Source: Bacteriovoracaceae bacterium
GTDB lineage: Bacteria; Bdellovibrionota; Bacteriovoracia; Bacteriovoracales; Bacteriovoracaceae
NCBI GenBank assembly: GCA_049599895.1
Contig: JBMYPC010000047.1
Location: 1-22,042 of the forward strand
DNA: 22,042 bases
Direction of reading: 5' to 3'
Positions 2,544-18,235 of the stretch are shown here, one piece after another. The notes beneath the pieces are model-generated. The model had not been told where the DNA came from. It did not search any database and worked only from the letters and a program-made list of their open reading frames with translations. The number at the start of each line of letters is the position of its first letter. The stretch's first letter is position 1. Made by a program: the position numbers and the translations under genes.

Positions 2544-3644
2544 ATGACGCAGGACTACACGATATCTCAATCTAAGCCGAATCCAGAAGACAATTTTGAA
2601 TATTTTGCCAGTGAAAATCCTCACCCAGCAAGGGCCCGGGAGATGATCAAAAAATATCCTGAGCTTAAAAAATATATGGGCCATTACCCAAAGACAGCTC
2701 TTATTGCACTGGCAATTTTCACAGCCCAAGTTGGACTTGGTGTCTTCTTTGCGACAGATAATGTTTCTTGGCTTTATATTCTCGCTACTGCTTATCTTTT
2801 TGGAGCTTTCCTTCATCACTGTCTTTTTGTGATTATTCATGAAGCTGCTCATAACCTCATCTTTAAACCAGCTTGGGCCAATAAAGCAGCTGGGATTTTC
2901 TGTGATTTCTGCCAAGCGGTTCCTACTTCAATTAGTTTTAGATTTTATCACCTAATCCATCACTCAAATATGGGTGAATATGATTTGGATGCGGATCTTT
3001 CTCACGACAAAGAGGCAAAGCTTATTGGTAACTCATTTCCTAAAAAGATCCTTTGGTTTCTCTTTTTCTTTGTCGTTGAAGCCTTAAGACCTCTAAGGCT
3101 TAAAAGAAAGCAACCTATTGATGTTTGGTTTGTTGCAAGTATCGTCTTGGTCATCGCCTTTAACGTCTCTTTAGGTTATTTTATTGGGGCAAAAGCGATT
3201 TCTTATCTTCTTCTCTCTACTCTGTTTTCAGTTGGGCTTCATCCGGTAGGAGCAAGATGGATTCAAGAACATTATATTCTTCGAGAAGGACAACAGACTT
3301 ATTCTTACTATGGACCACTTAATAAACTGGCCCTTAATGTCGGTTATCATAATGAACACCATGACTTCTTTAGAATTCCTTGGGTTCACCTGCCAAAGAT
3401 TACTGAGACAGCTCCAGAATATTACAAATCACTTCTGGCCTACAGAAGCTGGTCGAAACTTCTTTGGAGATTTTTAACAGATAAAGACCTTAGTCTTTAC
3501 TCTAGAGTGATTGTGAAAAAATCGAGAGCTGGCCAAAAAGCTTCTCAAGAGAAGCAAGAAGGCCAAGGGATTATTGCTGATCCTAGCGCTATGCCGCAGT
3601 TCACAAAAAGCTCTGAACAAAACCCAGAGCACATTAACGCTTAG
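2544..3644 (+). CDS. Membrane fatty-acid desaturase, sphingolipid delta-4 desaturase / C4-hydroxylase (DEGS/DES1)-like
   Basis: Three His boxes: HEAAH, HLIHH, HNEHH. The N-terminal 'PHPARAREMIKKYPELKKYMG' resembles the Lipid_DES segment. 'GLHPVGARWIQEHY' and 'TYSYYGPLNKLALNVGYHNEHHDF...APEYY' closely follow DEGS1 signature stretches. Confidence 0.85.
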   Translation: MTQDYTISQSKPNPEDNFEYFASENPHPARAREMIKKYPELKKYMGHYPKTALIALAIFTAQVGLGVFFATDNVSWLYILATAYLFGAFLHHCLFVIIHEAAHNLIFKPAWANKAAGIFCDFCQAVPTSISFRFYHLIHHSNMGEYDLDADLSHDKEAKLIGNSFPKKILWFLFFFVVEALRPLRLKRKQPIDVWFVASIVLVIAFNVSLGYFIGAKAISYLLLSTLFSVGLHPVGARWIQEHYILREGQQTYSYYGPLNKLALNVGYHNEHHDFFRIPWVHLPKITETAPEYYKSLLAYRSWSKLLWRFLTDKDLSLYSRVIVKKSRAGQKASQEKQEGQGIIADPSAMPQFTKSSEQNPEHINA

Positions 3645-3749: not shown

Positions 3750-5525
3750 ATGGCTTCGAATATTACAGAAACTGCTTCGGTACTTTCAGCTACCGTCCCC
3801 CTAATGGGCCTTGCCCTTGCCGCTGCACTTGCAGTTGGAAAACTAGCATCAAAGTTTCAGGTACCAAAAGTTACAGGATTTATTCTTGTTGGCATACTCC
3901 TTGGCCCCACTGGTGCAAATCTCATCACCGCAAAAATAGCCCATAATCTGGAGTTTATTAATCAGATAGCCTTCGGTTTGATCCTCTTTAATATCGGCGG
4001 TGTCTTTAACCGTGAAATTTTCCAATCTGTTGGACGAAAACAAGTTAAGTTTTCGTTGGTTCTCGGACTCTTTATTTGGATCTCAACCTTCCTTATATGT
4101 TCGATTTTTGGTTATTTAAATTATGGAACTTGGTATCAGGCTTTCGTTCTTGCCGGTTTCCTTGCCATTGTCGCCATCGATCCTGCACCACCAACTTCTC
4201 TCCTTGTGATTAAAGAGGTTGATGGAAAAGGGCCTCTTACTCAATCAATTTTTATTTTCCTCGTGGTTTCAACATTATTAGGAATCACTGTTTCTGAGCT
4301 TACAGTTATTGGTTACCAATCAATGGAAATATGGCCAAGTGAAGTTCAAGCAACATTAACGACCCGTTTGACAGATCTTGGTATTTCATTTCTAGGTTCT
4401 ATTCTTGCTGGTATCGGGCTCGGTTTTATTCTGAGTTATTGGGAACAAAAAGAAAAAAACCAATACGAAATCCTTCTTGGAGTTGTCACAACTCTTATGC
4501 TCGGGCAAACTCTGGCCCATTACTTTAACCTCAATGCCATGCTCATTAGTTTAACTCTTGGCTTTATCATTATTAATATTTCAAATACTGGAAATGCGAT
4601 TCATTCCGCAATTAAAGGAATGGGGCTTTCAATTTATGCTCTTTTCTTTGTCCTGGCCGGTGCTCACATTGACCTTACGACCCAGCTTGCTTCATTAGGT
4701 ATTGCAAGTCTTGGTTACGTTCTCGCAAGATTTATTGGTATTCCTTTTAGTTCAATCCTCGCAGCAAGAATTGTTGGAGAATCAAAAGAGCTTGGAATGA
4801 GAAAGGGACTTTCAGTTCTCTCTCACGCAGGTCTTGCCATGGCCATGGTTCTTAACCTCAAGCCAATCGATGATAAAATTGCAAAAGATATTATTGGAAT
4901 CGTTATGAGCTCCATTTTTATCTTTGAGATCGCTGGCCCTCTTCTTTTAAGATTCTCAATTATGAAGGCCAATGAAGCAGACATTCTTTCAGGAAAAGAT
5001 ATTACTTCAAAAGCGACAATCACTTTTAAAGATCTCTTTCGAAATCTTTTATTCAACCTTCACATCATTAAGCCAAAGTCGACCTCTCATATCAATAGTA
5101 TCCGTCACCTTATTAAAAGAGACATTATTGCGATTCAAGAAAATGCGACTCCAAAAGAGATTGCAAACTTTGTCAAAACTCATCACGCTTTTATGTACGC
5201 GATCGTTGACGAGGAACATAAGTATAAAGGAATTCTTGATATTTCGGCTCTTCATCAATCACTTAATGACAGCGATGAATTTCAATTTGTTAAGGCAAAA
5301 GATCTTATCGGTCCCACATATTTAATTAAAGAAAATGTGAAATACCATGAGGCCCTACAAATCTTTGAGCAGCTTGGAGTGACAGAGCTTCCCGTTGTGA
5401 ATTGTGACACCCGAGATCTTGTTGGATCTATCCACCATAAAGATGTTGTCGTAGCAAACTCGACACAGAAACCAGCAAATGTGAAAACTTCAGAGTACCA
5501 AGTAAGCTCTTATTTCGATGATTAA
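3750..5525 (+). CDS. Cation:proton antiporter (Na_H_Exchanger / CPA2-like) with C-terminal CBS pair
   Basis: About 12 hydrophobic segments, with 'PKVTGFILVGILLGP', 'LFFVLAGAHIDL' and 'IFEIAGPLLLR'. The soluble C-terminal ~150 aa has CBS-like 'AIVDEEHKYKGILD' and 'LPVVNCDTRDLVGSIHHKDV'. Confidence 0.85.
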   Translation: MASNITETASVLSATVPLMGLALAAALAVGKLASKFQVPKVTGFILVGILLGPTGANLITAKIAHNLEFINQIAFGLILFNIGGVFNREIFQSVGRKQVKFSLVLGLFIWISTFLICSIFGYLNYGTWYQAFVLAGFLAIVAIDPAPPTSLLVIKEVDGKGPLTQSIFIFLVVSTLLGITVSELTVIGYQSMEIWPSEVQATLTTRLTDLGISFLGSILAGIGLGFILSYWEQKEKNQYEILLGVVTTLMLGQTLAHYFNLNAMLISLTLGFIIINISNTGNAIHSAIKGMGLSIYALFFVLAGAHIDLTTQLASLGIASLGYVLARFIGIPFSSILAARIVGESKELGMRKGLSVLSHAGLAMAMVLNLKPIDDKIAKDIIGIVMSSIFIFEIAGPLLLRFSIMKANEADILSGKDITSKATITFKDLFRNLLFNLHIIKPKSTSHINSIRHLIKRDIIAIQENATPKEIANFVKTHHAFMYAIVDEEHKYKGILDISALHQSLNDSDEFQFVKAKDLIGPTYLIKENVKYHEALQIFEQLGVTELPVVNCDTRDLVGSIHHKDVVVANSTQKPANVKTSEYQVSSYFDD

Positions 5526-6189
5526 AAAATCATGCCAAACATCGATTCCGCTTGAAGGCCATTGCCTTTATAATTTCGATCTCTCATCACCTCCTGAAAC
5601 GATTAATCTTTATTTACATGGGTTTGGCCAAACTGCTGAGCAATTCTCTAAAATTATTGAGCCTATACTCACAGACAAAGATCTTATTCTCAATGCTCCA
5701 TTTCCCATTCCCAATATCTTTGAAAAGAAAATCGACTTTGCCAGTATGAGGTCTGATTTTCGCTTCACATGGTATTTCTACAATAAAGAAAATGATACTT
5801 ATCTTATTAAGATGGACTCAGCTCTTGAGTATATCCAAACTCTGCTACAATCATTAAACCTTCTCGATCATAAGTTTAATATTATTGGCTATTCTCAAGG
5901 GGGTTATCTCGCGCCTTTTCTTGGACAAGCTCTTAAGAACGTCTCAAAAGTTTTAAGCTGTCATGCGAGTCTAAGAGAAGATAAACTTTTTTCAGAAAAA
6001 GCGCAGAAGCTTCCCTTTTCCTTCTATCAAATAAACGCTAATCAAGATGAGTTCATCGACAACGAGCTCGCAAAAGAACGCTTTAACCTTGCAAAAGAAA
6101 AGTTTTCTGAAGCCCAGTTTATTGAAGTGAACTCAAAACATCGGATAAAATCAGAGACTTTAGAAGCGATTTCAAAGATTTTAGACTAA
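5518..6189 (+). CDS. Alpha/beta hydrolase (phospholipase/carboxylesterase-like)
   Basis: Oxyanion 'LHGFGQ', nucleophile elbow 'GYSQGG', candidate Asp ('QDEFI') and His ('SKHRI'). Overlaps the antiporter 3' end by 8 nt. Confidence 0.8.
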   Translation: MIKKSCQTSIPLEGHCLYNFDLSSPPETINLYLHGFGQTAEQFSKIIEPILTDKDLILNAPFPIPNIFEKKIDFASMRSDFRFTWYFYNKENDTYLIKMDSALEYIQTLLQSLNLLDHKFNIIGYSQGGYLAPFLGQALKNVSKVLSCHASLREDKLFSEKAQKLPFSFYQINANQDEFIDNELAKERFNLAKEKFSEAQFIEVNSKHRIKSETLEAISKILD

Positions 6190-6546: not shown

Positions 6547-8025
6547 ATGAAATCGAACAAAGTACACTCTTCACTATTTACTAGTGTTATTTTGCTTTTA
6601 GGACTTACCTCTTGTAACGAAGCTCAATTCTATGAAAAAGAACTGACCAATTCTGCCTTAAATGCAGACGAAGTTATCACTGATGAGCTCTTAATTGTTT
6701 CAGAGCCGGGTGACTCTCAGTCTGGTTCGGGATCAGATTCTAGCTCAGGATCGTCTGGATCCAACAATGACTCAGGTTCAGGTTCAGGTTCAGGTTCAGG
6801 TTCAGGTTCAAACATTATCATTATCTCTGATTCAGACTCTGGTTCAGATTCTAGCTCAGACTCTAGCTCAGACTCTAGCTCAGACTCTAGCTCAGACTCT
6901 AGTTCAGATTCTGGTTCAGATTCTGGTTCAGACTCTAGTTCAGACTCTAGTTCAGACTCTAGTTCAGACTCTAGTTCAGATTCTAGCTCAGATTCTGGTT
7001 CAGATTCTAGTTCAGATTCTAGCTCAGATTCTGGTTCAGATTCTGGTTCAGATTCTAGTTCAGACTCTAGTTCAGACTCTGGTTCTGACTCAAACTCAAC
7101 TTCTGATTCGAGCTCTGACTCTGGATCAAATTCTGAATCAAACGCAGATCCAAATGCAGATTCAGACTCTGACTCAACAGGTGCCCCAGTCATCCTCACT
7201 GATTCATTTACACAAAATGTATCAGAAGAAAAAGCCGTTGATATTCTTTGGGTCATTGATAACAGTGGCTCGATGTCAGACAACCAAAGAGCATTGGCCA
7301 CAAATTTTAAATACTTTATTGACGAGTTTATTCAAAGAGATCTCGACTTTCAAATGGCGATCACAACCACTGATGCCACAAGAGATGACTCTGGAGATAT
7401 GATTGGAGACTACACGAGACTAGATTCAAAAGCTGCAACAGATGATGAAGCTGATTTTTTAAATTATTTTGCCAATACTGTCAGAGTTGGAACTTATGGA
7501 TCATCTTATGAAAAAGGTCTTCAAACAATGGAGAAGTTTCTTGAACGCCATAGTCGCTACTGGCTTAGAGACGACGCTTATCTTGTTGTTGTGGTTCTTT
7601 CAGACGAAGATGAACAATCTCGAAAATCAGCTTCATATTACTATGACGTCTTAGCTGACTATAAATCTGATATGAGATACGTAAAAGTTAATAGTATTGT
7701 TTCTTATAGAACAGCGACTTTCGGTGATGAGTCTGAAGGATTTAAGTATAAAGAGATCTCGGAGCTTACCGGTGGTGAATCTCATAATATCGAAGAAGAC
7801 TTCTATGAAACATTAAGTGATATGGGTGGAACCATTGTTCAACTACTCTCAAGTTTTGCTCTTTCAGAAAAAGCGATTGAAAGCAGTATTGTTGTTGAAG
7901 TGAATGGTAACCAAGTTCAAAACTGGGAATACAACTCTCAATCAAAAAGTATTGAGTTTGATAATGGGTCTCTTCCTGAGGAAGGAAGTGATATCCAGAT
8001 CACGTACCAAAAGGATGAGTCATGA
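6547..8025 (+). CDS. Lipoprotein with Ser/Asp-repeat stalk and VWA (MIDAS) domain; CglB/CglD-like adhesin candidate
   Basis: RBS AGGAG at 6536-6540. Signal peptide II ends in LTS-C23. About 150 aa of S/D/G-rich linker is followed by 'VDILWVIDNSGSM' (DxSxS MIDAS), 'GTYGSSYEKGL' and 'VVVLSDEDEQS', then a C-terminal beta-rich domain. ATGA overlap with the next gene. Confidence 0.85.
   Translation: MKSNKVHSSLFTSVILLLGLTSCNEAQFYEKELTNSALNADEVITDELLIVSEPGDSQSGSGSDSSSGSSGSNNDSGSGSGSGSGSGSNIIIISDSDSGSDSSSDSSSDSSSDSSSDSSSDSGSDSGSDSSSDSSSDSSSDSSSDSSSDSGSDSSSDSSSDSGSDSGSDSSSDSSSDSGSDSNSTSDSSSDSGSNSESNADPNADSDSDSTGAPVILTDSFTQNVSEEKAVDILWVIDNSGSMSDNQRALATNFKYFIDEFIQRDLDFQMAITTTDATRDDSGDMIGDYTRLDSKAATDDEADFLNYFANTVRVGTYGSSYEKGLQTMEKFLERHSRYWLRDDAYLVVVVLSDEDEQSRKSASYYYDVLADYKSDMRYVKVNSIVSYRTATFGDESEGFKYKEISELTGGESHNIEEDFYETLSDMGGTIVQLLSSFALSEKAIESSIVVEVNGNQVQNWEYNSQSKSIEFDNGSLPEEGSDIQITYQKDES
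6772..6810 (+). repeat. 6-bp tandem repeat (TCAGGT)x6 + TCA encoding (SG)6S
   Basis: Perfect in-frame hexamer repeat read directly from the sequence. Confidence 0.95.
6832..7083 (+). repeat. 12-bp tandem repeat TCAGAYTCTRGY x21 encoding SDSS/SDSG
   Basis: 252 nt = 21 in-frame units in the order G,S5,G2,S5,G,S2,G2,S2,G. Degenerate units continue to about 7175. Confidence 0.95.
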
Positions 8026-8738
8026 AATTGATTCGAATTGTGCTAAAAATAATGGCAGTTGGTCTTTTGACCAACTGCTACTCTGCCTACTCCTCTGAAA
8101 AAGACCTCTATGACTTTCTCTGGTTGGATCAAGACAAAAGAGTCTATGTCCTTCAAAACAAAGTTTTTAAAAAGAAAAAATCTTTTTTCTTTCAGGCAGG
8201 ATATCTCATTGGACTCTCAAATGAATTCCAAGACACAAAAGGATTTCACTTTGGAGCTGGTTATCACTTTACAGAACAATTAGGTATTGAGGTTATCTAT
8301 AATTCCTATAGTAACTCTGATAACGATGCCACGATTAATCTTCGAGAGATTAACGAAGAGGTTCCCTTCACAAGAAAGTTTAACTCTCTTATGGGAGTCA
8401 TGGTTCGTTGGGATCCCTTCTATGGGAAATTTAATATTTTCAACAACATCATTTACTTTGATTGGACCTTCGCGGCGGGTCTCGGAAAAATTGAAACAGA
8501 GTCAAATGCTAATACAGTTGCAGATCCGAATTCGGCAAACGCTTTTACTTCAGAATCATACTCAGCTGGGCTTGTAAAAACAGCTTTTAAGATTCATGTA
8601 ACCGAGAGATGGTCTGTCGACACCCAACTTTTAAGAACGATCTACAATGCTCCTGGCCCTAAATCAACAACAGGACTTCAAGAAGATAGTTGGCGAGGAA
8701 ATTCTGACTTTATCCTATCTGTGGGGTTTTCGTTTTGA
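8022..8738 (+). CDS. Outer-membrane beta-barrel protein, GltA/GltB-like
   Basis: Signal peptide, 'VYVLQNKVFKKK', 'YHFTEQLGIE' and 'WDPFYGKFNIF...IIYFD' (typical of the myxobacterial/Bdellovibrio OMP family), alternating beta-strands and a terminal aromatic BAM signal 'VGFSF'. Confidence 0.8.
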   Translation: MKLIRIVLKIMAVGLLTNCYSAYSSEKDLYDFLWLDQDKRVYVLQNKVFKKKKSFFFQAGYLIGLSNEFQDTKGFHFGAGYHFTEQLGIEVIYNSYSNSDNDATINLREINEEVPFTRKFNSLMGVMVRWDPFYGKFNIFNNIIYFDWTFAAGLGKIETESNANTVADPNSANAFTSESYSAGLVKTAFKIHVTERWSVDTQLLRTIYNAPGPKSTTGLQEDSWRGNSDFILSVGFSF

Positions 8739-10183
8739 ACAAAAAGACATTCTTAGGATTGCTCCTATTTTCATTCATGCAACACTCAGCTTTTGCTTCA
8801 ATGAAAAAAGCTGAAAGATATTACAACAAGGACCAAAAAAAGTACCTTGAAAAGATCGTTGAAGAACTTATGAAATCAAAGTATTTCTTCTCAGCTTCAT
8901 TGTTTGCAAAAGAAATTCTGATTTCAAGAGACAAGCTTCCAACTTACTTTGAGAGTCGTCTTGAGAAACTCATTCTCAAGACAGGAACTCAGTCTTTTCT
9001 CCCTCTTTCTAATAATGTTCTTGAAAAACATAAATCTCCTTCACTCTCTTTAGTTCTTGGCATTAAATATTTTCAAAAAGCAAGATACCAAGATGCAATT
9101 AGAGTTTTAAATCGAATCCCAGAAAATCACCGGTTTTCGCCTGAAGCCTTTATGATGAAAGCTTCTGCGCATAATCTTCTTAAGCAGCACGAAAAGTCTT
9201 TAAATGTTTATCAGCAATGTATTGAAAGTTCTTCAAACTTTGAAGAAAAAGCAAAGCACAAAAAACTTAAAAGATACTTTGCGATCATTAGAGAGAACTG
9301 CCATATCCATGTGGCGAGGGCCTATTACACCCAAAAAGATTATGAAAAGGCAATGGAACTTTATGAAAAGATTCCTAAAACTAGTTATAGATGGCCTTAT
9401 ATAATACTAGAGAAAGCATGGACTCATTACTATCTCAAAGACTATAACAGAACCCTTGGTTCTCTTGTGACTTATAAGTCCCCCCTACTTAGTAGTTATT
9501 TCTTCCCAGAAGCAGAGATTTTAAATGCTCTCTCATATTACCGCATGTGCCTTTGGAATGATTCTTTGAAAAAGATTGAAGAGTTTTATAAAGTTTATAA
9601 GACGAGAAGTGATGAACTAAAAGGTCTTCTTCTTCAGCACAAGACCTCGCAAACATTTTTTCTTAAGCTTCTTTTTACTCCTCTTGCTCAAACGGAAAAA
9701 GCAAACCCCTTTATTCGTAACCTTGTCACTCAAGTCAAAAAGCAGGTAAAGTTTTCTGTTGATGTTGTGAATTACAAAAAAGCTCAACATGAGCTCAAGT
9801 TTATCAAATCTTTAAAGAAGGGAGCTTTTCAAAGGGAACTCCTCTCAATGATCAAGACGGAAGTTAGCTGGCGAGCAAAACATCTCAATTATTATTTAAA
9901 AAAGAATATGTTCCATTTTCTCAATGAGATTCATCGCTTCTCCTATGAAATGTTTAATATCAAGCTCGAGATTTTCAGTCAGCAGCGAAACCTTGTCTAT
10001 AACAATAAGCGCCTCGTCTCTTATCGAAATCGAGGAAGTGATAAAAATGTAAATCGTCAGGATCACCAACAATTCTATGACTTTCGCGGAGAATTTTGGG
10101 GAGATGAACTTGGAGACTATTCCTTTGGTTTAAAATCCAATTGCAAAACCATTGATAAAAAGAAAAGAAAGGCAAGAAAATGA
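8735..10183 (+). CDS. gltC: Periplasmic TPR protein, GltC-like
   Basis: TTG start overlapping the upstream stop; signal peptide (AFA); TPR helices; 'WPYIILEKAWTHY', 'FFPEAEILNALSYYRMCLW' and C-terminal 'FRGEFWGDELGDYSFGLKSNC' match the GltC signature as I recall it. Confidence 0.75.
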   Translation: MNKKTFLGLLLFSFMQHSAFASMKKAERYYNKDQKKYLEKIVEELMKSKYFFSASLFAKEILISRDKLPTYFESRLEKLILKTGTQSFLPLSNNVLEKHKSPSLSLVLGIKYFQKARYQDAIRVLNRIPENHRFSPEAFMMKASAHNLLKQHEKSLNVYQQCIESSSNFEEKAKHKKLKRYFAIIRENCHIHVARAYYTQKDYEKAMELYEKIPKTSYRWPYIILEKAWTHYYLKDYNRTLGSLVTYKSPLLSSYFFPEAEILNALSYYRMCLWNDSLKKIEEFYKVYKTRSDELKGLLLQHKTSQTFFLKLLFTPLAQTEKANPFIRNLVTQVKKQVKFSVDVVNYKKAQHELKFIKSLKKGAFQRELLSMIKTEVSWRAKHLNYYLKKNMFHFLNEIHRFSYEMFNIKLEIFSQQRNLVYNNKRLVSYRNRGSDKNVNRQDHQQFYDFRGEFWGDELGDYSFGLKSNCKTIDKKKRKARK

Positions 10184-10443
10184 AAATTCTCTTTTTAAGT
10201 CTCACATTTTTAATTTCTCTAAATAGCTACTCACAAAACAGCACCGAGGAGAATAAAAATGTTGTTGTTCAATATAAAAAGTATGAAAGCTTTGACCTTG
10301 GTGAACTCGAGGTTAAAGGTCGAATCATTGCACCAGGAGATCTGAGTGTAAAAGAGAGAAGCCGCAAGGTTTTTAAGAGAGATCTCTATGAGAGATACAA
10401 TTTTGATCAAGAAATCAAGGAGGACATCAAAAACTTGAGATAA
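10180..10443 (+). CDS. gltF: Small secreted protein, GltF/CglF-like
   Basis: 87 aa with signal peptide. 'YKKYESFDLGELEVKGRIIAPG...R.NFDQEIKEDI' parallels the CglF pattern (Y-K-x-T-x-I-D-F...I-E-G-x-L-x-x-P-x-G...R-x-x-F). ATGA overlap with gltC. Confidence 0.65.
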   Translation: MKILFLSLTFLISLNSYSQNSTEENKNVVVQYKKYESFDLGELEVKGRIIAPGDLSVKERSRKVFKRDLYERYNFDQEIKEDIKNLR

Positions 10444-10668: not shown

Positions 10669-11382
10669 ATGGAAACAGAACTGGCAACTCAGGCTGCTAC
10701 AGCAGCTGCTGCAGATCCAAGTTTTTTAGAAAGCTTAGCGCTTTTTATGCACGAAGGTGGATCATTTATGTGGATTATTCTTTTGGTTTGGGCCATTGGA
10801 ATAGCGATCTCACTAGAAAAAATCAAAAGCCTTCTCAGCTATGATGTTGATGGAAACAGTCTGATGAATCTTGTCAAAAAGCATGTTCTTCTTAACGACG
10901 TTGCTGAAGCGATTAAAGCCTGTTCAAACACAAATGCTCTTCTTCCTCTTGTTCTAAGATCGGGACTTAAGCGTGCAAATCAATCTAAGGAACAAATCCA
11001 AGATGCTGTAGAGGCCTCAATGCTAGAAGTCGTTCCTAAAGTTGAAAAAAGAATGAACTACCTAGGACTCCTAGCGAATATCTCAACTCTTTGTGGTCTT
11101 TTAGGAACGATCTATGGTCTTATCCAATCATTTGCCGCTGTGGCAACTGCCGACCCTGCTTCAAAAGCAAAACTCCTCGCTCTTGGTATTTCAAAGGCCA
11201 TGAACACAACTGCTGCAGGACTTATTGCAGCGATTAGCCTTATGATTATTCACTCAATCCTCACCAGCAAAGGTGAGAAAATTCTCAATGAAATTGAAGA
11301 GTACTCAGTTAAGCTTATCGATCTTCTTGGAACGAAGAAAAACTATAAGACTGATCAAGATGAGACTCAGGCCGCTTCTTAA
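10669..11382 (+). CDS. aglR: MotA/TolQ/ExbB proton-channel protein, AglR-like
   Basis: 'EGGSFMWIIL', 'LGLLANISTLCGLLGTIYGLIQSF', 'LALGISKAMNTTAAGL'; three TM segments. The aglR name rests on the glt context. Confidence 0.9.
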   Translation: METELATQAATAAAADPSFLESLALFMHEGGSFMWIILLVWAIGIAISLEKIKSLLSYDVDGNSLMNLVKKHVLLNDVAEAIKACSNTNALLPLVLRSGLKRANQSKEQIQDAVEASMLEVVPKVEKRMNYLGLLANISTLCGLLGTIYGLIQSFAAVATADPASKAKLLALGISKAMNTTAAGLIAAISLMIIHSILTSKGEKILNEIEEYSVKLIDLLGTKKNYKTDQDETQAAS

Positions 11383-11426: not shown

Positions 11427-11948
11427 ATGAGAATGAAAAGAAGTATGAAGAAGATTGAGAAACTTAACCTCATCCCTATTCTGGATGCGGTTTTCATCTT
11501 TATCTTCTTTCTTTTAATGTCAGCACAATTTCTTGAAGTCTATGAAATTGGAAGTGATGCACCAGCTGTCAAGATGGTGGAAAAGGACAATAAGGATAAA
11601 AAAGATCCTCTTAATCTGACTCTTGAAATTAGCAAAAAAGAAATTAAGGTTCTCACGGGGTTAAACTCAAGAACCGTCGCTTCAGTTGCTTTTTCAAAAG
11701 ATGCGAATTCTTATGACCTTGATAAGCTCAAAAAGGTCTTAGTCGATATCAAAGTAAAAAACAGCGAAGAAGAGTCTATTATCCTTAGGCCAAAGGCCAA
11801 TGTTCCTTATAAATCAATCGTTAAGATTATGGACACTGCAAGAAAGCTTGAACGTAGTGAAACAGAGCTTGTCATTGAAAACAAAAATGGAACAAAAGTA
11901 AAAACAAGAAAGCTTTTTGAGCAAATTGTTTTTGAAACATTGATCTAA
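11427..11948 (+). CDS. aglQ: ExbD/TolR family protein, AglQ-like
   Basis: TM 'LNLIPILDAVFIFIFFLLMS' with conserved Asp; 'IILRPKANVPYKSIVKIMD'; RBS GAGG. The aglQ name is positional. Confidence 0.85.
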   Translation: MRMKRSMKKIEKLNLIPILDAVFIFIFFLLMSAQFLEVYEIGSDAPAVKMVEKDNKDKKDPLNLTLEISKKEIKVLTGLNSRTVASVAFSKDANSYDLDKLKKVLVDIKVKNSEEESIILRPKANVPYKSIVKIMDTARKLERSETELVIENKNGTKVKTRKLFEQIVFETLI

Positions 11949-11968: not shown

Positions 11969-12490
11969 ATGAAAAAGCGATTTGGAAGAATGCGAAAGAA
12001 ACCTGAAAACTTTGAGATTGATATCACATCACTCCTTGATATCCTTGTCATCCTTTTGGTGTTTCTTTTAAAAAGTTATAACCCAAGTGATCTGACTGTC
12101 GACCTTGTTGACTCTCTAGAACTTCCTGATAGTCGTTCCGAAGATCTCGGTTCAAGTAATGTCATGATTCAAGTGAATAAGAACAAAGAAGTTTTCATTA
12201 ATAATAATCGCATTGGTTCACTTAATGGACAAAGAGGTGAACAAGTTTCATTTCTCTATGAAAAACTTGTTGAGTTAAAAAAGCAAGAAGATGCAAAGCT
12301 TGATAATGTTATTGATAGAGATCCTTCATCTTTGACTTCCGTTGAAGCCCTCAAAAGAAAAAATGCCAAAAAAGTTAATATCGTTCTAGACCAAGGTCTT
12401 TCTTATCAGATCATGAGAAAGATCATGCACACATCAACGATGGCAGGTTTTCCAGAATTTAAGTTTATCGTTAAGGGGAGTCATCAATAA
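11969..12490 (+). CDS. aglS: ExbD/TolR family protein, AglS-like
   Basis: TM 'IDITSLLDILVILLVFLLKSY' with conserved Asp, 'LELPDS', 'VNIVLDQGLSYQIMRKIMHTSTMAGF'; RBS AAGGA. Confidence 0.85.
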   Translation: MKKRFGRMRKKPENFEIDITSLLDILVILLVFLLKSYNPSDLTVDLVDSLELPDSRSEDLGSSNVMIQVNKNKEVFINNNRIGSLNGQRGEQVSFLYEKLVELKKQEDAKLDNVIDRDPSSLTSVEALKRKNAKKVNIVLDQGLSYQIMRKIMHTSTMAGFPEFKFIVKGSHQ

Positions 12491-15420
12491 TGAAGTTTCT
12501 CTTTAAGATCCTTCATATTCTCGTTCTATTCCCCTTAGTTGCTCATTCGTTAACTAAGACAGCAGAGTCTTCATCTGCACAGACGAAGATGTCTAAAAAA
12601 TGGCATCAGCTTCATAAACTTATTGATAAAGAGATCAGAACGATTAATCACCTTAAACGAAAAGGTCCTAGGTTAGAATACAGATTATTAGAGCTTCATA
12701 CTGAAAAAATCAACCTTCTTAAAGAAAAAGAAAATGCTCAATTTCTTAACAGTGATGGGAAGAGAGCGAAATCTTCTTTCTTTAAGAAATCCATTGCTCA
12801 CACGAAAAAAACGGAACAATTTGGTCTCAATCTTATTAGACGTTACCCTAATTTTATAAAAAATGCTCAAATCTATTACACACTTGCTCTGAACTCTCGA
12901 GATTTTGGGCATAAAAAGAAAGTTAAAACTTATCTTTTAAAAGCTCTCAAACTTGCACCTTCAGGAGATCCAATTGTTTATGACATTAAACTTGCGATAG
13001 CTGAACAGTTCTACAATGATAAGAAATATCGACCTGCAGTGAATTATTATAGAGATGTTCTTCGTAATAAAGACGACAATTGGCTAAGTAAACATCATTT
13101 TAACGTGGCCTGGTGTTATCTTAAACTTGTTAATTATCAAAAAGCATTGGATCATCTCAAAACCGCTCATAATCTGAGTAAAAAGCCTGGAATGGCCGAT
13201 GTTCGAGAGCAAGTCTTTAACTCTGCTCCAATTTTTTATCTTTATGCTGGTAAAGTTCAAGCGGGTGTTAAGTTCTTACTCAAAAATGCTAAACAGCCTG
13301 GAAAGTACCTTTCAAAACTTGCAAGTCTTACTGCTGAAAGAGGTGCATTAAAAGACTCTGAATATGTATTAAGAAAAGCTTTCAAAAAAGCTCTCAGTGA
13401 TAAGAACGCTGATGATCTCTACACCATCACACTTAAAATGTTTGAAATTTTTCGAAGCTATAAGCAAAACAAAAAACATTTTAAAACGGCAAAGCTTGTT
13501 CGTTCATTAAGAAGAAAAATTCCAATGCCCAAACATCTTGTTGCTCCAACGATGGATCAGCTCAAGGGTCAAGTTGGCTACCTTCAAATTCGTCTTAAGG
13601 CGCATCCCAATAGAAAAAAGCAGTTTCTCTACCCTATTATCGCTTATTTTGACCTTATGATTGATATTACTCCAAAAGAAACTGATCAGTACCGCTATCT
13701 CCAAGGTGAGACCTATTATCTTGCAAGTGAGAAAAAACCCGCTCTTGAGTCGTACCTTAAGGCCATGGCCTTCACTCAAAAGACAAGCGGCAATATCAAG
13801 CTGAAGCAAAAAATTATTGATGCCCTTTTTTACTCACTTGAAGACATTAAATTTGATGATACAAACTACAGGCAAAATCTCTATACAAAAGCTTATAATT
13901 TTTATCTCAACTATTGGCCTAAGAATAAGAAATCAGAAGTTATCTATCAAAAGCTTTTTAAAATTTACATCCTGCAAGGAAAAGATGCTCTCGCATATAA
14001 AACCTTTCAAAGGTATCAAAAGTCATATCCAGCAAACTTTGAAAAACAAAGGGCCCTCATGGCGATGCTTATTGATCGTTATGTCAAAACAAAAAACATT
14101 GAGAGACTTTCTCATTGGATGATTCAGTTAGATTCAGGTTACCTTAAGTTTGAAAGGTCATATATCGAAAAAGGATTAATCCTCTTAGGACAAATTCTCT
14201 TTGAACAGTATGAAAACCAAAGAAAGAAAAAAGAGTATGATAATGCTGTTGAAGGCTACCAAGCTCTTTACGAAAACGAGACCTATCCAAGAAAGATTAA
14301 GGCCAATGCCGCTTTTCGTATTGCGCTCATTGAACTTGAAAGATCTCATACCCAAGACTCATTCAAATGGATAAAAAACTATCTTTCTCTTTCTGATTTT
14401 AAAGAAGTCCAACTTGCCAAGGAGAATCTCTTTCGAATCACTGAAAACATTCTTCTTCTCCAGGACTTTAAAACAGCATCTGCGATGAGTTTGGTCATGG
14501 GGCAGAAGTTTTGTAAAAAACCTTCAAAAACCTTAGATCAATTCGTAAAGTTTGCAATTACTCTTCCCGTTTATGAAAAGGACTTTAAGAAAACGATTTT
14601 ACATTATAGAAAGCTTTCTCAATGTGCTCAAAAGAAATTGGTCAACAGAGAGTCTCTTGAAACTTTGATTGATTTTTCTACGGATCAACGAGAATATGGT
14701 TATTTTCTTGAACTTCATCGATCATTTAAAAATCAACCTCAACTTATTAATAAATTCTCGACAGCAATGCTTGAGCTCTACTGGGACGCAACGCTTAACA
14801 ACAAACATAAACTTTCTCACTTTGCAATGTCTGAATTAAAGTCATATGCTTCAAAGAAGAAAGCTATTGTTTCTAATCAACTGACTCACATTCTTCATTT
14901 TGAAAGATTTCAAGGTTATGTTGATGGCAATAAGTTTTTATTCCAAAGCCAGAACAAGTTCAAAGAAGATGTCTTTAACAGCGATCTTGTTTTAAACCTT
15001 AAAAAGATTGAACAAATTGACTCTGAGGCGAATCGACTTCTCAACTACAAGCATCCCGTTATTTCTTTATTCGTCTTTTCAAAACTTAAAATCAAGTATG
15101 AAGAACTCTCCAATGAACTTAAAAAAGTTTCTGTAAAAAACATGCCAAAAGAATTTATCAAGAGTTTTAATCAGCAGATACAAAACATTACCTCTTCGCT
15201 TGATCAGAAGGCCCGTGAATATCAAAAGTTCTCAAATCAAGCCAGTGTAAAAGAAGGTATTTTTAATCAATACGGAATAGAGCTTACCAATTTAAATGAA
15301 CTTTCTAAAAACTACCACTTTGAGTACCCCGCTTCTGAATTTCTTTTCCCTGTGAATCGATTTCAAATCCAGGAGCAAACAGAACGTTCTCCAAGTGAAA
15401 CAAGTGAGAAAAGAGATTAA
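12490..15420 (+). CDS. Large periplasmic TPR protein, GltD/AgmU-like
   Basis: 976 aa with signal peptide (AHS) and many TPR-like helices ('LAIAEQFYNDKKYRPAVNYYRDVL', 'HFNVAWCYLKLVNYQKAL', 'YLQGETYY'). TAATG overlap with the upstream gene. Size and position fit GltD. Confidence 0.75.
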   Translation: MKFLFKILHILVLFPLVAHSLTKTAESSSAQTKMSKKWHQLHKLIDKEIRTINHLKRKGPRLEYRLLELHTEKINLLKEKENAQFLNSDGKRAKSSFFKKSIAHTKKTEQFGLNLIRRYPNFIKNAQIYYTLALNSRDFGHKKKVKTYLLKALKLAPSGDPIVYDIKLAIAEQFYNDKKYRPAVNYYRDVLRNKDDNWLSKHHFNVAWCYLKLVNYQKALDHLKTAHNLSKKPGMADVREQVFNSAPIFYLYAGKVQAGVKFLLKNAKQPGKYLSKLASLTAERGALKDSEYVLRKAFKKALSDKNADDLYTITLKMFEIFRSYKQNKKHFKTAKLVRSLRRKIPMPKHLVAPTMDQLKGQVGYLQIRLKAHPNRKKQFLYPIIAYFDLMIDITPKETDQYRYLQGETYYLASEKKPALESYLKAMAFTQKTSGNIKLKQKIIDALFYSLEDIKFDDTNYRQNLYTKAYNFYLNYWPKNKKSEVIYQKLFKIYILQGKDALAYKTFQRYQKSYPANFEKQRALMAMLIDRYVKTKNIERLSHWMIQLDSGYLKFERSYIEKGLILLGQILFEQYENQRKKKEYDNAVEGYQALYENETYPRKIKANAAFRIALIELERSHTQDSFKWIKNYLSLSDFKEVQLAKENLFRITENILLLQDFKTASAMSLVMGQKFCKKPSKTLDQFVKFAITLPVYEKDFKKTILHYRKLSQCAQKKLVNRESLETLIDFSTDQREYGYFLELHRSFKNQPQLINKFSTAMLELYWDATLNNKHKLSHFAMSELKSYASKKKAIVSNQLTHILHFERFQGYVDGNKFLFQSQNKFKEDVFNSDLVLNLKKIEQIDSEANRLLNYKHPVISLFVFSKLKIKYEELSNELKKVSVKNMPKEFIKSFNQQIQNITSSLDQKAREYQKFSNQASVKEGIFNQYGIELTNLNELSKNYHFEYPASEFLFPVNRFQIQEQTERSPSETSEKRD

Positions 15421-15421
15421 G

Positions 15422-16291
15422 ATGATGGAACTGAGATTTAATAAAGCACATTCATTAATCCTTTTTATGGCATTTCTCAGTATGAGCTGTTCTCTTAACA
15501 GGCTTTCGACAACAGGCAGCCAATCTTCAGAGCTTCTCAAAAACGAAACTCTCTTAAGATACAATTCCGACGAGATTCAACAAATTGCCGAAAATGACAA
15601 TCCTCTCACTTCGGCGCTTGCAGAATGTCATCGAGGAAATGCAAAAAATGCACTCAATAAGCTTAAAAATGAGCTTGAAGAAAATCGTGAAAATTTTGAG
15701 TACTGGAATAAAGTTGGTACTTGCTACTACTTATCTAAAAATGACTCTAAGGCGACTTTTTTCTTTGAACACGCTTTAAATATTTCAAAGAAGACCAAGA
15801 AGAAAAACCCTTACTCTTATAATAACCTTGGAATACTCTATTTAAAGAAGAGACATTTTGCAAAAGCTAAAACAGCTTTTGAACTAGCACTAAAGACTTC
15901 CCCAAACCTTTTAACTCCTAAATACAACCTCTCACAGCTCTATCTTCAGTTTGGCCAAATAGCGCCGGCTAAAAAGATTCTGCTTGATCTTTATGGTGAA
16001 GATTCAAAAGATATTGACCTCATCTCTTCTCTTGGTGTTTTGGCCATAATTGAAAAAGAGTATGACCTTGCTATCAAATATTTCAATATGATTCCTGAAG
16101 ATGATCAAAAGAGAGCTGACATTGCGGCACACTTCTCTTTAAGCCTTTATCTCAAGGGAAATTATTATGAGGCCAGAGAAGCCTTAAAAAAACAAAAAGT
16201 AACGACTCTTAAGCCATTTTACAAACTCAACCGTAAGCTTTCGAGCCTCATTACTGAAGCAATAAAAAAAGAAGAACAAAAGAATAAATAG
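15422..16291 (+). CDS. TPR lipoprotein, GltE/AglT-like
   Basis: The likely start is ATG 15422 or 15425 rather than GTG 15395, giving signal peptide II '...LILFMAFLSMS-C'. TPR motifs 'YWNKVGTCYY', 'YNNLGILYLK', 'YNLSQLYLQFG'. Confidence 0.75.
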   Translation: MMELRFNKAHSLILFMAFLSMSCSLNRLSTTGSQSSELLKNETLLRYNSDEIQQIAENDNPLTSALAECHRGNAKNALNKLKNELEENRENFEYWNKVGTCYYLSKNDSKATFFFEHALNISKKTKKKNPYSYNNLGILYLKKRHFAKAKTAFELALKTSPNLLTPKYNLSQLYLQFGQIAPAKKILLDLYGEDSKDIDLISSLGVLAIIEKEYDLAIKYFNMIPEDDQKRADIAAHFSLSLYLKGNYYEAREALKKQKVTTLKPFYKLNRKLSSLITEAIKKEEQKNK

Positions 16292-16318: not shown

Positions 16319-18235
16319 GTGCATACGATGAAAGACAGTCTTAAAACCGGTTACAAACTGACCTCCTATTCTTCGGGAAAGGTGGTTCATGAGTTTGTTC
16401 TGGAAAAGCGAAAACTGATTATCGGCAGGAGTGAAAAATGTGATCTCCAAGTTGATGATGATCGCATCTCTCACTATCACGCATTTATTGAAATCCTGGA
16501 TGAAGGAATTCGAATCATTGATCTTTCAAGTATTAATGGAACGTATATTAATGGAGATAAGATCGAGTCTGCTTTTGTCACCTTTGGAGATCAAATCTCA
16601 TTTGGAGGACTTGAATTTCAAACCACTGAGATCATGGGAGAATCCTTAGAGGTTGAAGATTCTGATGAGAATCAGGTTCGTAAGGTTGATGCAGCAGAGC
16701 TTACGGCATTCACACCTCGACTGACTCCTGCTGAAGGTCTCGTGGTTATCGATGGCGAATATTGTGACATTAATTTTGACGAGTCTGAATTTAAAATTGA
16801 ATCTGAAGTTGAGGCCTTTACAAGAAATCTTTCAAAAGAAGACTATGTCGATGCTTTTGATGAAAGACAAATTAAACCAATTCTAAAAGAAGCAAATGGA
16901 AAGGCCATTCGTGTGACGATGCTCACGATGGGAAATATTCTTTCAGTGGATTATTTGCCTCTTAAAGCAAATTCGACCTATTTTATGTCACAAAGTCGAA
17001 GTGATAAAAAGACCGTTCTCATCCCGACTCTTTCCACAACTGAACGGGTTCCTTTTATTAAGATCGCAGGAGATCAAATTACAGTGATCAAACCTGAACA
17101 CTTTGAATATTTTGATGATGCCAAAAATGAGTCTTTTAAAGCTTATGACTGCGAGAATATCCCTTATCAAGAAGGACAACCACTTCATTTTATAATGGGA
17201 ACAGTGGAAATCCGCATCGAAACGGTTGATGCTCCAGACTCTCTTAAAAAAGCCACCTTCTTTGACCATGATAAAAAGCTTCACAAAGAGGCCGCAAAAG
17301 TTTTTTCTGCAGTTCTTAGTATTCTTCTTCTTTTACTCTTCGTTGATCTTCCAGAGCCAGAAGAGGAAGAAAAGAAAATTGCTGTTATATACCGCCAGAA
17401 AATTCAAAACAAAAAGACCACAGAACCCAAGTTTTCAAAAGAAGTTGCTAAAGAAAATGAAAAAGTGGGTCAAAAGAAAGTAGAGCAACCTAAAGCTGAT
17501 AAAAAACCACAATTTGCAAAGAAAAATAGAACTCCGGTGAAGACTCAAAAATCACCACAGAAAAAAGTCGCAAAAAAACAGGCGAAAAAATCTCCAAAGA
17601 AGACCTCAAGTCGAAGAAACAAAAGAGTGGCCAAAAAACCAATGAAAACCTACAAGCTCAAACTTGATCGTTCGGTTGCTTCATTTTTGACATCGAAAAA
17701 CAATTTAAAATCACCAACTGTTGAAAACAGTGCTAGTGCTTCGAGTATTGGTTCAAGTAGTGTTAAGGTCTCTGATGGTAAAGTTTCAACTCAGTCAAAT
17801 ATAAATATGGGGACATTTGGACAGGACTATAAAGGAAAACTTGCAACCTCAACAGGAACAAAGGGTCTCTCACGCAAGAAAGGTTTTGACACAACTTATG
17901 TTGAACCTAAAACTGTTGTCCTTGGCTCTATGGATCCAGAGCTTCTGAGAAAGATCCTAAGAGAGTACTTACCTCAATTCCGTCATTGTTATCAAAAAGA
18001 ACTTGAACATCATAGCGATGAAATCTCAGGTGTTTTAGACCTTGGCTTTAGAATTAATCCTAATGGAGCTGCAACAAAAGTCAGCATTCGAGCAAAGGAT
18101 TCACAATTCTCGAGAAGAGGAACAAAATGCATGAGTTCAGTTCTTAAGCTTATTAAATTTCCAAAACCGAAAGGTGGTGGTGTTGTTGATGTTAAACAAC
18201 CACTTAACTTTTCATCTGAAAGAGGAAAAATCTAA
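16319..18235 (+). CDS. gltG: FHA + TM + AgmX/PglI (TonB_C-like) protein, GltG-like energy transducer
   Basis: N-terminal FHA ('IGRS..CDLQVDDDRISHYHA...DLSSINGTYING'), single TM 'VFSAVLSILLLLLFV', Lys-rich linker, and C-terminal 'GSMDPELLRKILREYLPQFRHCYQKEL...C...FPKPKGGGVVDVKQPLNF'. GTG start with GAGGG RBS; ATG 16328 is an alternative. Confidence 0.85.
   Translation: MHTMKDSLKTGYKLTSYSSGKVVHEFVLEKRKLIIGRSEKCDLQVDDDRISHYHAFIEILDEGIRIIDLSSINGTYINGDKIESAFVTFGDQISFGGLEFQTTEIMGESLEVEDSDENQVRKVDAAELTAFTPRLTPAEGLVVIDGEYCDINFDESEFKIESEVEAFTRNLSKEDYVDAFDERQIKPILKEANGKAIRVTMLTMGNILSVDYLPLKANSTYFMSQSRSDKKTVLIPTLSTTERVPFIKIAGDQITVIKPEHFEYFDDAKNESFKAYDCENIPYQEGQPLHFIMGTVEIRIETVDAPDSLKKATFFDHDKKLHKEAAKVFSAVLSILLLLLFVDLPEPEEEEKKIAVIYRQKIQNKKTTEPKFSKEVAKENEKVGQKKVEQPKADKKPQFAKKNRTPVKTQKSPQKKVAKKQAKKSPKKTSSRRNKRVAKKPMKTYKLKLDRSVASFLTSKNNLKSPTVENSASASSIGSSSVKVSDGKVSTQSNINMGTFGQDYKGKLATSTGTKGLSRKKGFDTTYVEPKTVVLGSMDPELLRKILREYLPQFRHCYQKELEHHSDEISGVLDLGFRINPNGAATKVSIRAKDSQFSRRGTKCMSSVLKLIKFPKPKGGGVVDVKQPLNFSSERGKI

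Follow-up and report, generated by a model that had tools for sequence, protein, structure and literature searches.

A predicted tethered VWA/MIDAS lipoprotein encoded at the head of an Agl-Glt operon in a member of the Bacteriovoracaceae

What is the role of a predicted lipoprotein that carries a long tract of serine, aspartate and glycine in front of a VWA domain and whose gene precedes the genes of a motor system? This question is raised by the gene at positions 6547..8025 of a DNA stretch of 22,042 nucleotides (the window in the following; contig JBMYPC010000047.1 of assembly GCA_049599895.1) from a predatory-type, probably marine bacterium of the family Bacteriovoracaceae. Coordinates refer to the forward (+) strand unless a minus sign is given. 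[quoted passage not shown] The core of this description holds, namely a VWA/MIDAS protein with a predicted lipid anchor and a disordered spacer, and the protein is kin to CglD-type heads and to the MIDAS heads of Bdellovibrio. Motor phylogeny and gene order point to Bdellovibrio Bd1483 as its likely counterpart outside the Bacteriovoracaceae. We consider it probable, at roughly 0.6, that it is a surface lipoprotein docked on an outer-membrane β-barrel, whose MIDAS head, held on a generic tether, takes hold of substrate or prey as the motor pulls.

Anatomy of the adhesin

The open reading frame (ORF) 6547..8025 is a genuine gene, the first of its operon, and encodes a protein of 492 amino acids; two ORFs that overlap it, 6695-7402 (+) and 6717-7301 (-), were taken for shadows of the repeat described below. 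A promoter scan yielded nothing usable (3 sites compared to 1.8 +/- 1.3 in shuffled sequences). As read from the sequence, a basic and then hydrophobic leader precedes a lipobox LTSC (L20-T21-S22-C23), so that a type II signal peptide is predicted for 6547..6615, with the codon of Cys23 at 6613-6615 and Asn at residue +2. The lipobox had already been proposed, and among 112 aligned homologues, at least 90% retain its cysteine. Cys23 is the only cysteine of the protein; the head has none, and there is no DxDxDG array.

The C-terminal head comprises 280 residues. Its VWA domain (approximately residues 228-435, 7228..7851) contains the invariant residues D238, S240 and S242 (7258-7272), E322, D353 and E354, the first five of which are invariant in 112/112 aligned sequences, so that the DxSxS motif of the first-pass annotation is indeed intact. 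In an AlphaFold2 model, residues 213-489 adopt a Rossmann-type fold with a predicted local distance difference test (pLDDT) score mostly >90. The best structural matches in VIA-align are VWA or I domains (Z 14.8-15.8, root mean square deviation (rmsd) ~3, 177-187 aligned residues), with a top match of Z 15.8, rmsd 3.0 and 179 aligned residues among VWA and integrin I domains. Integrin beta chains align across the VWA domain and its flanking strands (model range 210-489) and match at E about 1e-9 in Foldseek. As these chains cover both the predicted strand before the VWA domain (residues 216-222, 7192..7212) and the predicted strands behind it (residues 449-489, 7852..8013), the VWA domain is inserted in a small β-domain. 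The VWA fold had therefore been recognized correctly, and the protein does end with β-domain at its C-terminus, but the proposed succession of a VWA domain and then a β-domain has to be replaced by an insertion. The VWA/MIDAS head, which is confidently predicted, resembles in this insertion an integrin beta I/hybrid pair. E322 and D353 may stand in an integrin-beta-type register and D245 may be ADMIDAS-like, which is not claimed here. A sequence search of solved structures with the head gave 0 matches at E up to 1, and a profile search gave four weak VWA matches at E 0.1-1.6.

With an E-value of 1e-30 or better, the head profile matches 4,676 clusters among 50%-identity representatives, which makes the head a large family. 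The head is present at E 1e-20 or better in 77/100 sampled Bacteriovoracaceae genomes, and named homologues are proteins from Halobacteriovorax, Bacteriovoracaceae and Peredibacter. In the genomes G012, G099 and G116, the head gene is present in several copies, in tandem or close to one another; the locus checked in G012 has no downstream barrel gene. In a literature search, which did not cover subscription journals, no earlier description of the stalked family was found.

From Cys23 onward there follows a motif, C-N-x-[ED]-[ED]-F-Y-[EQ]-K-[ED]-[FY]-L (6613..6648), from which the window copy diverges at some positions and which is a candidate segment for barrel docking or export. The twelve residues starting with the lipid-bearing cysteine are conserved (C-x4-FYxK-x2-L), and the linker behind them is variable. 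Among 74 homologues, F/Y at +5 and K at +8 are each found in 72, F/Y at +6 in all 74 and L at +11 in 63; this set was selected by the FYxK pattern, so that only the other motif positions are independent. In the AlphaFold2 model, the FYxK segment lies outside the monomer fold. A general export signal is disfavoured, since only 1/111 crudely predicted lipoproteins of the genome carries the motif. In Bacteroidetes, the lipoprotein export signal is K-(D/E)2 or Q-A-(D/E)2 right after the cysteine (PMC5080379). Many homologues of the window protein have K/Q followed by two acidic residues at +2 to +4; the window protein itself does not, and 0/111 of the genome's predicted lipoproteins match the Bacteroidetes signal.

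The low-complexity linker comprises residues 54-212 (6706..7182), is predicted to be disordered and contains 88 Ser, 32 Asp, 20 Gly and 0 Lys/Arg. The Ser/Asp/Gly tract of the first-pass annotation is thus real and measures 159 residues, 88% of which are S/D/G, with 97% within residues 96-196. Among six-frame ORFs of at least 120 amino acids, the most extreme 40-residue S/D/G window of the genome is located in this linker (40/40; runner-up 30/40). The tract is encoded by a 12-bp tandem repeat (6831..7091; 21.8 copies as assembled, 91% matches), which yields the tetrapeptide DS[S/G]S 21 times in residues 97-180, and by a 6-bp Ser-Gly repeat (6772..6810; 6.5 copies). Since no (SD)n run exceeds 2 and the Ser:Asp ratio is 2.75:1, the linker is not a Ser-Asp dipeptide repeat. 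Structure prediction from the 112-sequence alignment, which had been suggested as a check, left residues 23-212 unfolded (pLDDT about 40-56) in front of the folded VWA head. For the 159-residue linker, we estimate a contour length of 57-60 nm and an end-to-end distance of ~9 nm as a coil, the latter from a scaling law. Accordingly dimensioned, the linker would be a slack tether rather than a rod, unless it is modified.

The linker across homologues

The composition of this linker was compared in 121 proteins, namely the query and 120/269 matches, of which one lacked the MIDAS pattern used and five were partial. The remaining 115 proteins comprise 75 with the motif C-x3-6-[FY][FY]xK, 22 with an SFSLL-type sequence and 18 with neither; one FYxK-type protein with a large inserted domain was dropped, leaving the 74 motif-selected homologues mentioned above. 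In these 74 proteins, the spacing between the lipid-bearing cysteine and the MIDAS motif is 67-237 residues (median 149.5), and it is 34-36 residues in the 22 SFSLL-type proteins. A fraction of Ser+Asp of at least 0.5 is found in just one of the 69 linkers of at least 40 residues, which is the query itself (0.69; median 0.22; next 0.36). Gly is the most common residue in 44 of these linkers; Thr leads in 9, Pro in 5, Glu in 4 and Ser in 2. The median fraction of Lys+Arg is 0.01, and 68/69 linkers are net acidic, often weakly.

Orthologues at genome loci, whose 39 linkers overlap partly with the protein set, gave the same picture: Ser+Asp reaches at least 0.5 in 1/39, an Asn/Asp/Ser repeat. Two further representatives have Ser+Asp fractions of 0.48-0.49, one of them with short true SD runs, and in some orthologous linkers the fraction falls to 0.02-0.06. 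The repeats of orthologous linkers are built from Gly/Thr, Pro/Thr, Pro/Glu, Val/Pro or Asn/Asp, and within a single genus (five genomes) the linker measures 99 to 115 residues with differing repeat units. Judging from these sequences, the conserved feature is a long, low-complexity, disordered spacer that is poor in basic residues and variable in length, and Ser-Asp-rich linkers look sporadic within the family. The Ser-Asp composition appears to be a repeat expansion of one lineage and should not be ranked as MSCRAMM convergence. The comparison of homologous linkers, which had been suggested together with the idea of a Ser-Asp design, thus speaks against that idea, because the composition is not kept among orthologues. 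In six proteins (P0066, P0084, P0242, P0243, P0324, L025; 700-1500 amino acids), the slot of the linker is occupied by folded domains, Cys-rich repeats or tandem strand-like F-x-Q units.

Operon context and kinship to Bd1483, CglD and Bd0875

In Bdellovibrio bacteriovorus s4, a VWA lipoprotein gene is present in 3/4 agl clusters examined (L035, L051, L052, L053), as the first gene in one and as the last gene in two. The VWA-first cluster contains the genes for the VWA protein, a GYF-PilZ protein, aglR, two aglS, a 1242-amino-acid protein, an 82-amino-acid protein, gltG, a barrel and gltC. In the published annotation, Bd1481 is aglR, Bd1477 encodes 82 amino acids, Bd1475 is the barrel, listed against MXAN_2539 (GltB), and Bd1474 is gltC (PMC3169522). 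Gene order and sizes of the s4 cluster fit Bd1483 to Bd1474, and the Bd1483-position protein of s4 is identified by this gene order, not by the sequence of strain HD100. Of the three cluster-linked VWA genes of s4, the one in the Bd1483 position is closest to the window head (E 3e-32 compared to 1.5e-13 and 2.6e-4). A tree of concatenated AglR, AglS and AglS (12 rows, midpoint root) separates, with 100/100, the Bdellovibrio VWA-first cluster together with the window group from the four remaining rows; the window motor groups with Bd1479-1481, and a second paralogue on contig C23 of the window's genome belongs to the same clade.

The window protein shares with Bd1483 the lipobox, a VWA domain inserted in a β-domain built from both termini, the position as first gene of an Agl-Glt operon and motors of one clade; this insertion is the architecture that has been described for Bd0875 and Bd1483 (PMC11003981, Tyson et al.). 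In contrast to the window protein, the Bd1483 type has no linker, a spacing of ~34 amino acids from the cysteine to the MIDAS motif and the sequence SFSLL behind the cysteine, and its gene is followed by a GYF-PilZ gene and aglR. The window protein has a linker with a spacing of 215 amino acids, the FYxK motif and a barrel gene directly downstream, and the spacing and the motif mark it as a variant of the Bd1483 type. Bd1483 has been reported in the surface secretome, and Bd0875 has been seen at the surface by antibody (PMC11003981). The Bd1473-Bd1483 agl/glt operon of B. bacteriovorus HD100 is upregulated in host-independent growth and downregulated after prey entry (PMC2797640). The protein in the Bd1482 position of s4 (L035:11087-11707) has GYF_2 and PilZ domains, which may provide a c-di-GMP (cyclic diguanylate) input to the motor; no such protein was recognized in the window operon. 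The s4 cluster without a nearby VWA gene (L053) appears to be of the Bd0828-0838 type, a proposed gliding cluster.

Gene content and order in the window indicate that the genes downstream from the adhesin are an Agl-Glt operon with the adhesin gene in first place, which bears out the motor-system context of the first-pass annotation. The start of the gene for an outer-membrane β-barrel of the GltA/GltB type (8022..8738; TIGR04565, 101 bits, cut-off 60) overlaps the stop of the adhesin gene (ATGA). It is followed by genes for a GltC-like TPR protein (8735..10183; NF033756, E 1.2e-30, below cut-off) and for an 87-amino-acid protein (10180..10443) without library match, which is putatively GltF-like by size and position. 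AglR, a member of the MotA/TolQ/ExbB family, is encoded at 10669..11382, and two ExbD/TolR-family genes at 11427-11948 and 11969-12490 are AglQ/AglS-like. A 976-amino-acid TPR-like protein (12490..15420; weak TPR matches) may be the GltD-like component by its position and is, like the 87-amino-acid protein, kept in orthologous operons. Next come genes for a GltE-like TPR lipoprotein (15395..16291; TPR matches, NF033758 at E 0.0027) and a GltG-like protein with an FHA domain and a TonB-type C-terminus (16319..18235; NF033760 at E 1.3e-37, below cut-off; NF033768 above cut-off). The barrel gene is directly downstream from the adhesin gene in 40/44 loci of the best-scoring relatives; these are two sets of 22 chosen by score and thus biased to close orthologues. 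Within 20 kb around eight best family matches, five have the barrel gene adjacent, four of them with the full gene order and one with a rearranged order, and three genes lie outside an operon.

Several further observations concern the surroundings of these genes. At locus L055 (genome G019), a divergent MotA/TolQ gene and a short gltG gene follow the adhesin cluster, and no aglS pair was detected in the region. The window's genome (G000) contains other Agl-Glt parts, namely a cluster on contig C66 whose last gene encodes a stalkless VWA lipoprotein (C66:5151-6224), on C23 a sister set of aglR/S/S and gltD/E/F/G, and separate barrel-gltC pairs on C187 and C5. Upstream from the adhesin gene, an α/β-hydrolase gene (5518-6189, +) is located, which adjoins the adhesin gene in 6/29 other loci including L017, where the adhesin gene lies outside the operon. 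At 2544-3644 (+), the window encodes a protein similar to sphingolipid delta4-desaturases (Lipid_DES and FA_desaturase, both above Pfam cut-off); sphingolipids are known from some Bacteriovorax-type predators.

Beyond Bd1483, CglD of Myxococcus xanthus has a similar layout: in this surface lipoprotein, acidic repeats precede a β-sandwich and a C-terminal integrin-beta-I-like VWA head (bioRxiv 10.1101/2023.10.19.562135). The CglD model NF033765 is matched by 110/112 family members at E <=0.1, always on the head, and the isolated head matches at E 1.3e-6, but the 26.5 bits reached on the head are far from the equivalog cut-off of 400. CglD differs by its 1130 amino acids, COMP-like DxDxDG and EGF-like repeats and many disulfides, whereas the window protein has one cysteine and a simple repeat. 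Since this layout has already been described for CglD and the head is of the Bd1483 type, there is no convergence to invoke, and this part of the first-pass annotation is needless. The same head architecture is also present in the MIDAS-family invasion adhesin Bd0875 (NF052240), whose model is matched by 112/112 family members, all on the head; the window protein scores 55.9 bits against a cut-off of 700, and among 5 genomes searched just the two of Bdellovibrio exceed the cut-off. According to its description, Bd0875 has a unique cap and disulfides, in contrast to the Cys-free window head.

Proposed mechanism and alternatives

The adhesin is likely the surface grip of a proton-driven Agl-Glt machine. 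Four features seen in the window underlie the mechanism, namely the lipobox, the linker, the VWA head and the overlap with the barrel gene. As suggested by CglB, Bd0875 and Bd1483, the protein would carry a lipid and be exposed on the outer side of the outer membrane. CglB of M. xanthus is likewise a VWA/MIDAS lipoprotein adhesin held on GltA/B barrels, and its first strand behind the lipid has been modelled as a barrel contact (PMC9946355; PMC11761067); in the model, made with AlphaFold for the Myxococcus platform, residues 4-9 of CglB are inserted between GltA and GltB (PMC11761067). We infer that the FYxK motif beside the lipid may dock on the GltA/B-type barrel in a similar way. No CglB-named model is among the family matches shown. 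CglB differs in being Cys-rich and in needing GltK; a long linker is not mentioned in the source passages. The head would then bind ligands on a surface or on prey via its MIDAS cation, and the AglR/Q/S motor would pull through GltG, GltC and the barrel. The comparison of homologues supports a generic acidic tether poor in Lys and Arg, probably regenerated by tandem-repeat expansion, for which length and disorder would matter and the letters Ser and Asp would not.

Several points weigh against this reading of the adhesin as a barrel-docked grip and counterpart of Bd1483. The head is only ~31% identical to the Bd1483-position protein of s4, and the stalked family forms a separate family-level clade in a quick head tree without bootstrap, which leaves out Bd0875 and L052. 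The barrel tree does not unite the window barrel with the Bd1475-type barrel, and the sister motor paralogue on contig C23 means that orthology is one-to-many at best. At L055, adhesin, barrel, gltC, gltF, gltD and gltE are kept, and aglR is different and separated. Two stalked homologues (L015, L017) have the motif yet are located away from the operon, and the model of a stalkless relative leaves the matching segment and also the next strand unfolded, which weakens the argument from the unfolded motif. A bd1483 deletion mutant invades normally, and a gliding engine is demonstrated for none of the agl operons of Bdellovibrio, some of which may encode transporters (PMC13689555).

Alternatively, the Ser-Asp chemistry itself could be selected, giving a Ca2+-binding or O-glycosylated stiff stalk of the MSCRAMM or phosphoprotein kind that lifts the head above the lipopolysaccharide. 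Between anchor and ligand head, ClfA, ClfB, SdrC and SdrD have, like the window protein, a disordered spacer that is long, acidic and rich in Ser; they have an LPXTG-type C-terminal anchor and an IgG-like N2N3 head. The models of these four proteins match the tract of the window protein, which has 55% Ser and a charge density of 0.21, and 68/69 homologous linkers are net acidic, with a median Ser+Thr of 30%. The acidic DxDxDG repeats of CglD and seawater, possibly the source of the sample, point in the same direction. However, the matches are confined to the tract, with 48-73 bits against cut-offs of 999-2500 and in 1/112 family members; they are compositional. The window protein has neither the anchor nor the N2N3 head but a VWA head and a C-terminal β-domain, with the HMM (hidden Markov model) matches lying within residues 51-220, and its polarity is opposite. 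It has no SD dipeptide array, and its linker composition is not kept in orthologues, some of which are nearly devoid of Ser or Asp in this region. An SdgA/GtfA-type enzyme was not found at cut-off in the 97% complete genome. TIGR02918 gave three weak genome matches below cut-off, at the same level as in 14/14 control genomes, and the O-oligosaccharyltransferase family PF11846 had no match in the genome and none in the controls, which makes the latter search uninformative. Selection for Ser-Asp chemistry is very unlikely. In staphylococci, stalks with unrelated sequences share their behaviour as extended disordered chains (PMC10367597), so that the statement that the linker works like a stalk survives and a spacer role is plausible, but membership in the Sdr/Clf group and convergence on Ser-Asp do not. 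As the linkers of relatives have many compositions, the window adhesin is likely a variant of Bd1483, not a copy of the staphylococcal Ser-Asp design.

It is unlikely, though more probable than a selected Ser-Asp chemistry, that the MIDAS adhesin, although on the surface, serves an Agl-Glt-type machine for transport or envelope assembly (Nfs-like, or for prey attachment) as cargo or accessory and is not a traction point for gliding. Paralogous Agl-Glt clusters with non-motility functions are in line with this, as are the proposal of Bd0828-0838 as the gliding cluster (PMC3169522), with L053 as its counterpart and the one s4 cluster that lacks a VWA gene close by, the transporter role that a review allows for some clusters (PMC13689555) and the action of the related Bd0875 in invasion. 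In contrast, the Bd1483 transposon mutant, like the mutant in aglR Bd1481, performs poorly on thick biofilms, not on thin lawns, where halos are formed (PMC2277423), the level of the Bd1481 protein, high in attack phase, drops as the cells grow inside prey (PMC12546842), and bd1483 deletion leaves invasion normal. Slightly less probable again than the Ser-Asp stalk is a periplasm-facing protein, in which the linker would be an ordinary lipoprotein tether for Lol sorting or for crossing the periplasm and the VWA domain would bind machine subunits or peptidoglycan. About half of the outer-membrane lipoproteins of Escherichia coli have disordered N-terminal linkers whose length and disorder matter and whose sequence does not (bioRxiv 10.1101/2021.01.05.425367). 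Moreover, a GltK-like gene, which is needed for CglB retention in Myxococcus, was not recognized in the window operon in library scans. Relatives of the window protein have been reported at the surface, however. The stalkless Bd1483 type manages with ~34 residues between cysteine and MIDAS motif, as seen in the 22 SFSLL-type proteins, and hence sorting in the family does not require a long linker; linker lengths that vary more than threefold fit poorly to a fixed periplasmic span.

A further idea extends the reading of a barrel-docked grip and is put forward tentatively, as it is doubtful in its entirety. The Bacteriovoracaceae may have split the Agl-Glt adhesin into a barrel-docking peptide that is fixed and an integrin-like head that is free; the repeat-encoded tether between the two would be rewritten between genera and change in length between species. 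Such a tether would be a tunable element of reach and compliance, an entropic spring that loads a catch-bond MIDAS head. If this is true, the tether could tune which surfaces, capsules or prey are gripped, and it would replace the rigid GltK-CglB coupling of myxobacteria.

The family is a concrete candidate for the substrate-gripping part of the Agl-Glt machines of Bdellovibrionota. Its modular design, consisting of lipid, 12-residue motif, swappable tether and MIDAS head, is testable in culturable Halobacteriovorax, Bacteriovorax or Peredibacter, and natural linkers that differ in length and composition provide ready swaps for examining how tether length affects traction or predation on biofilms.

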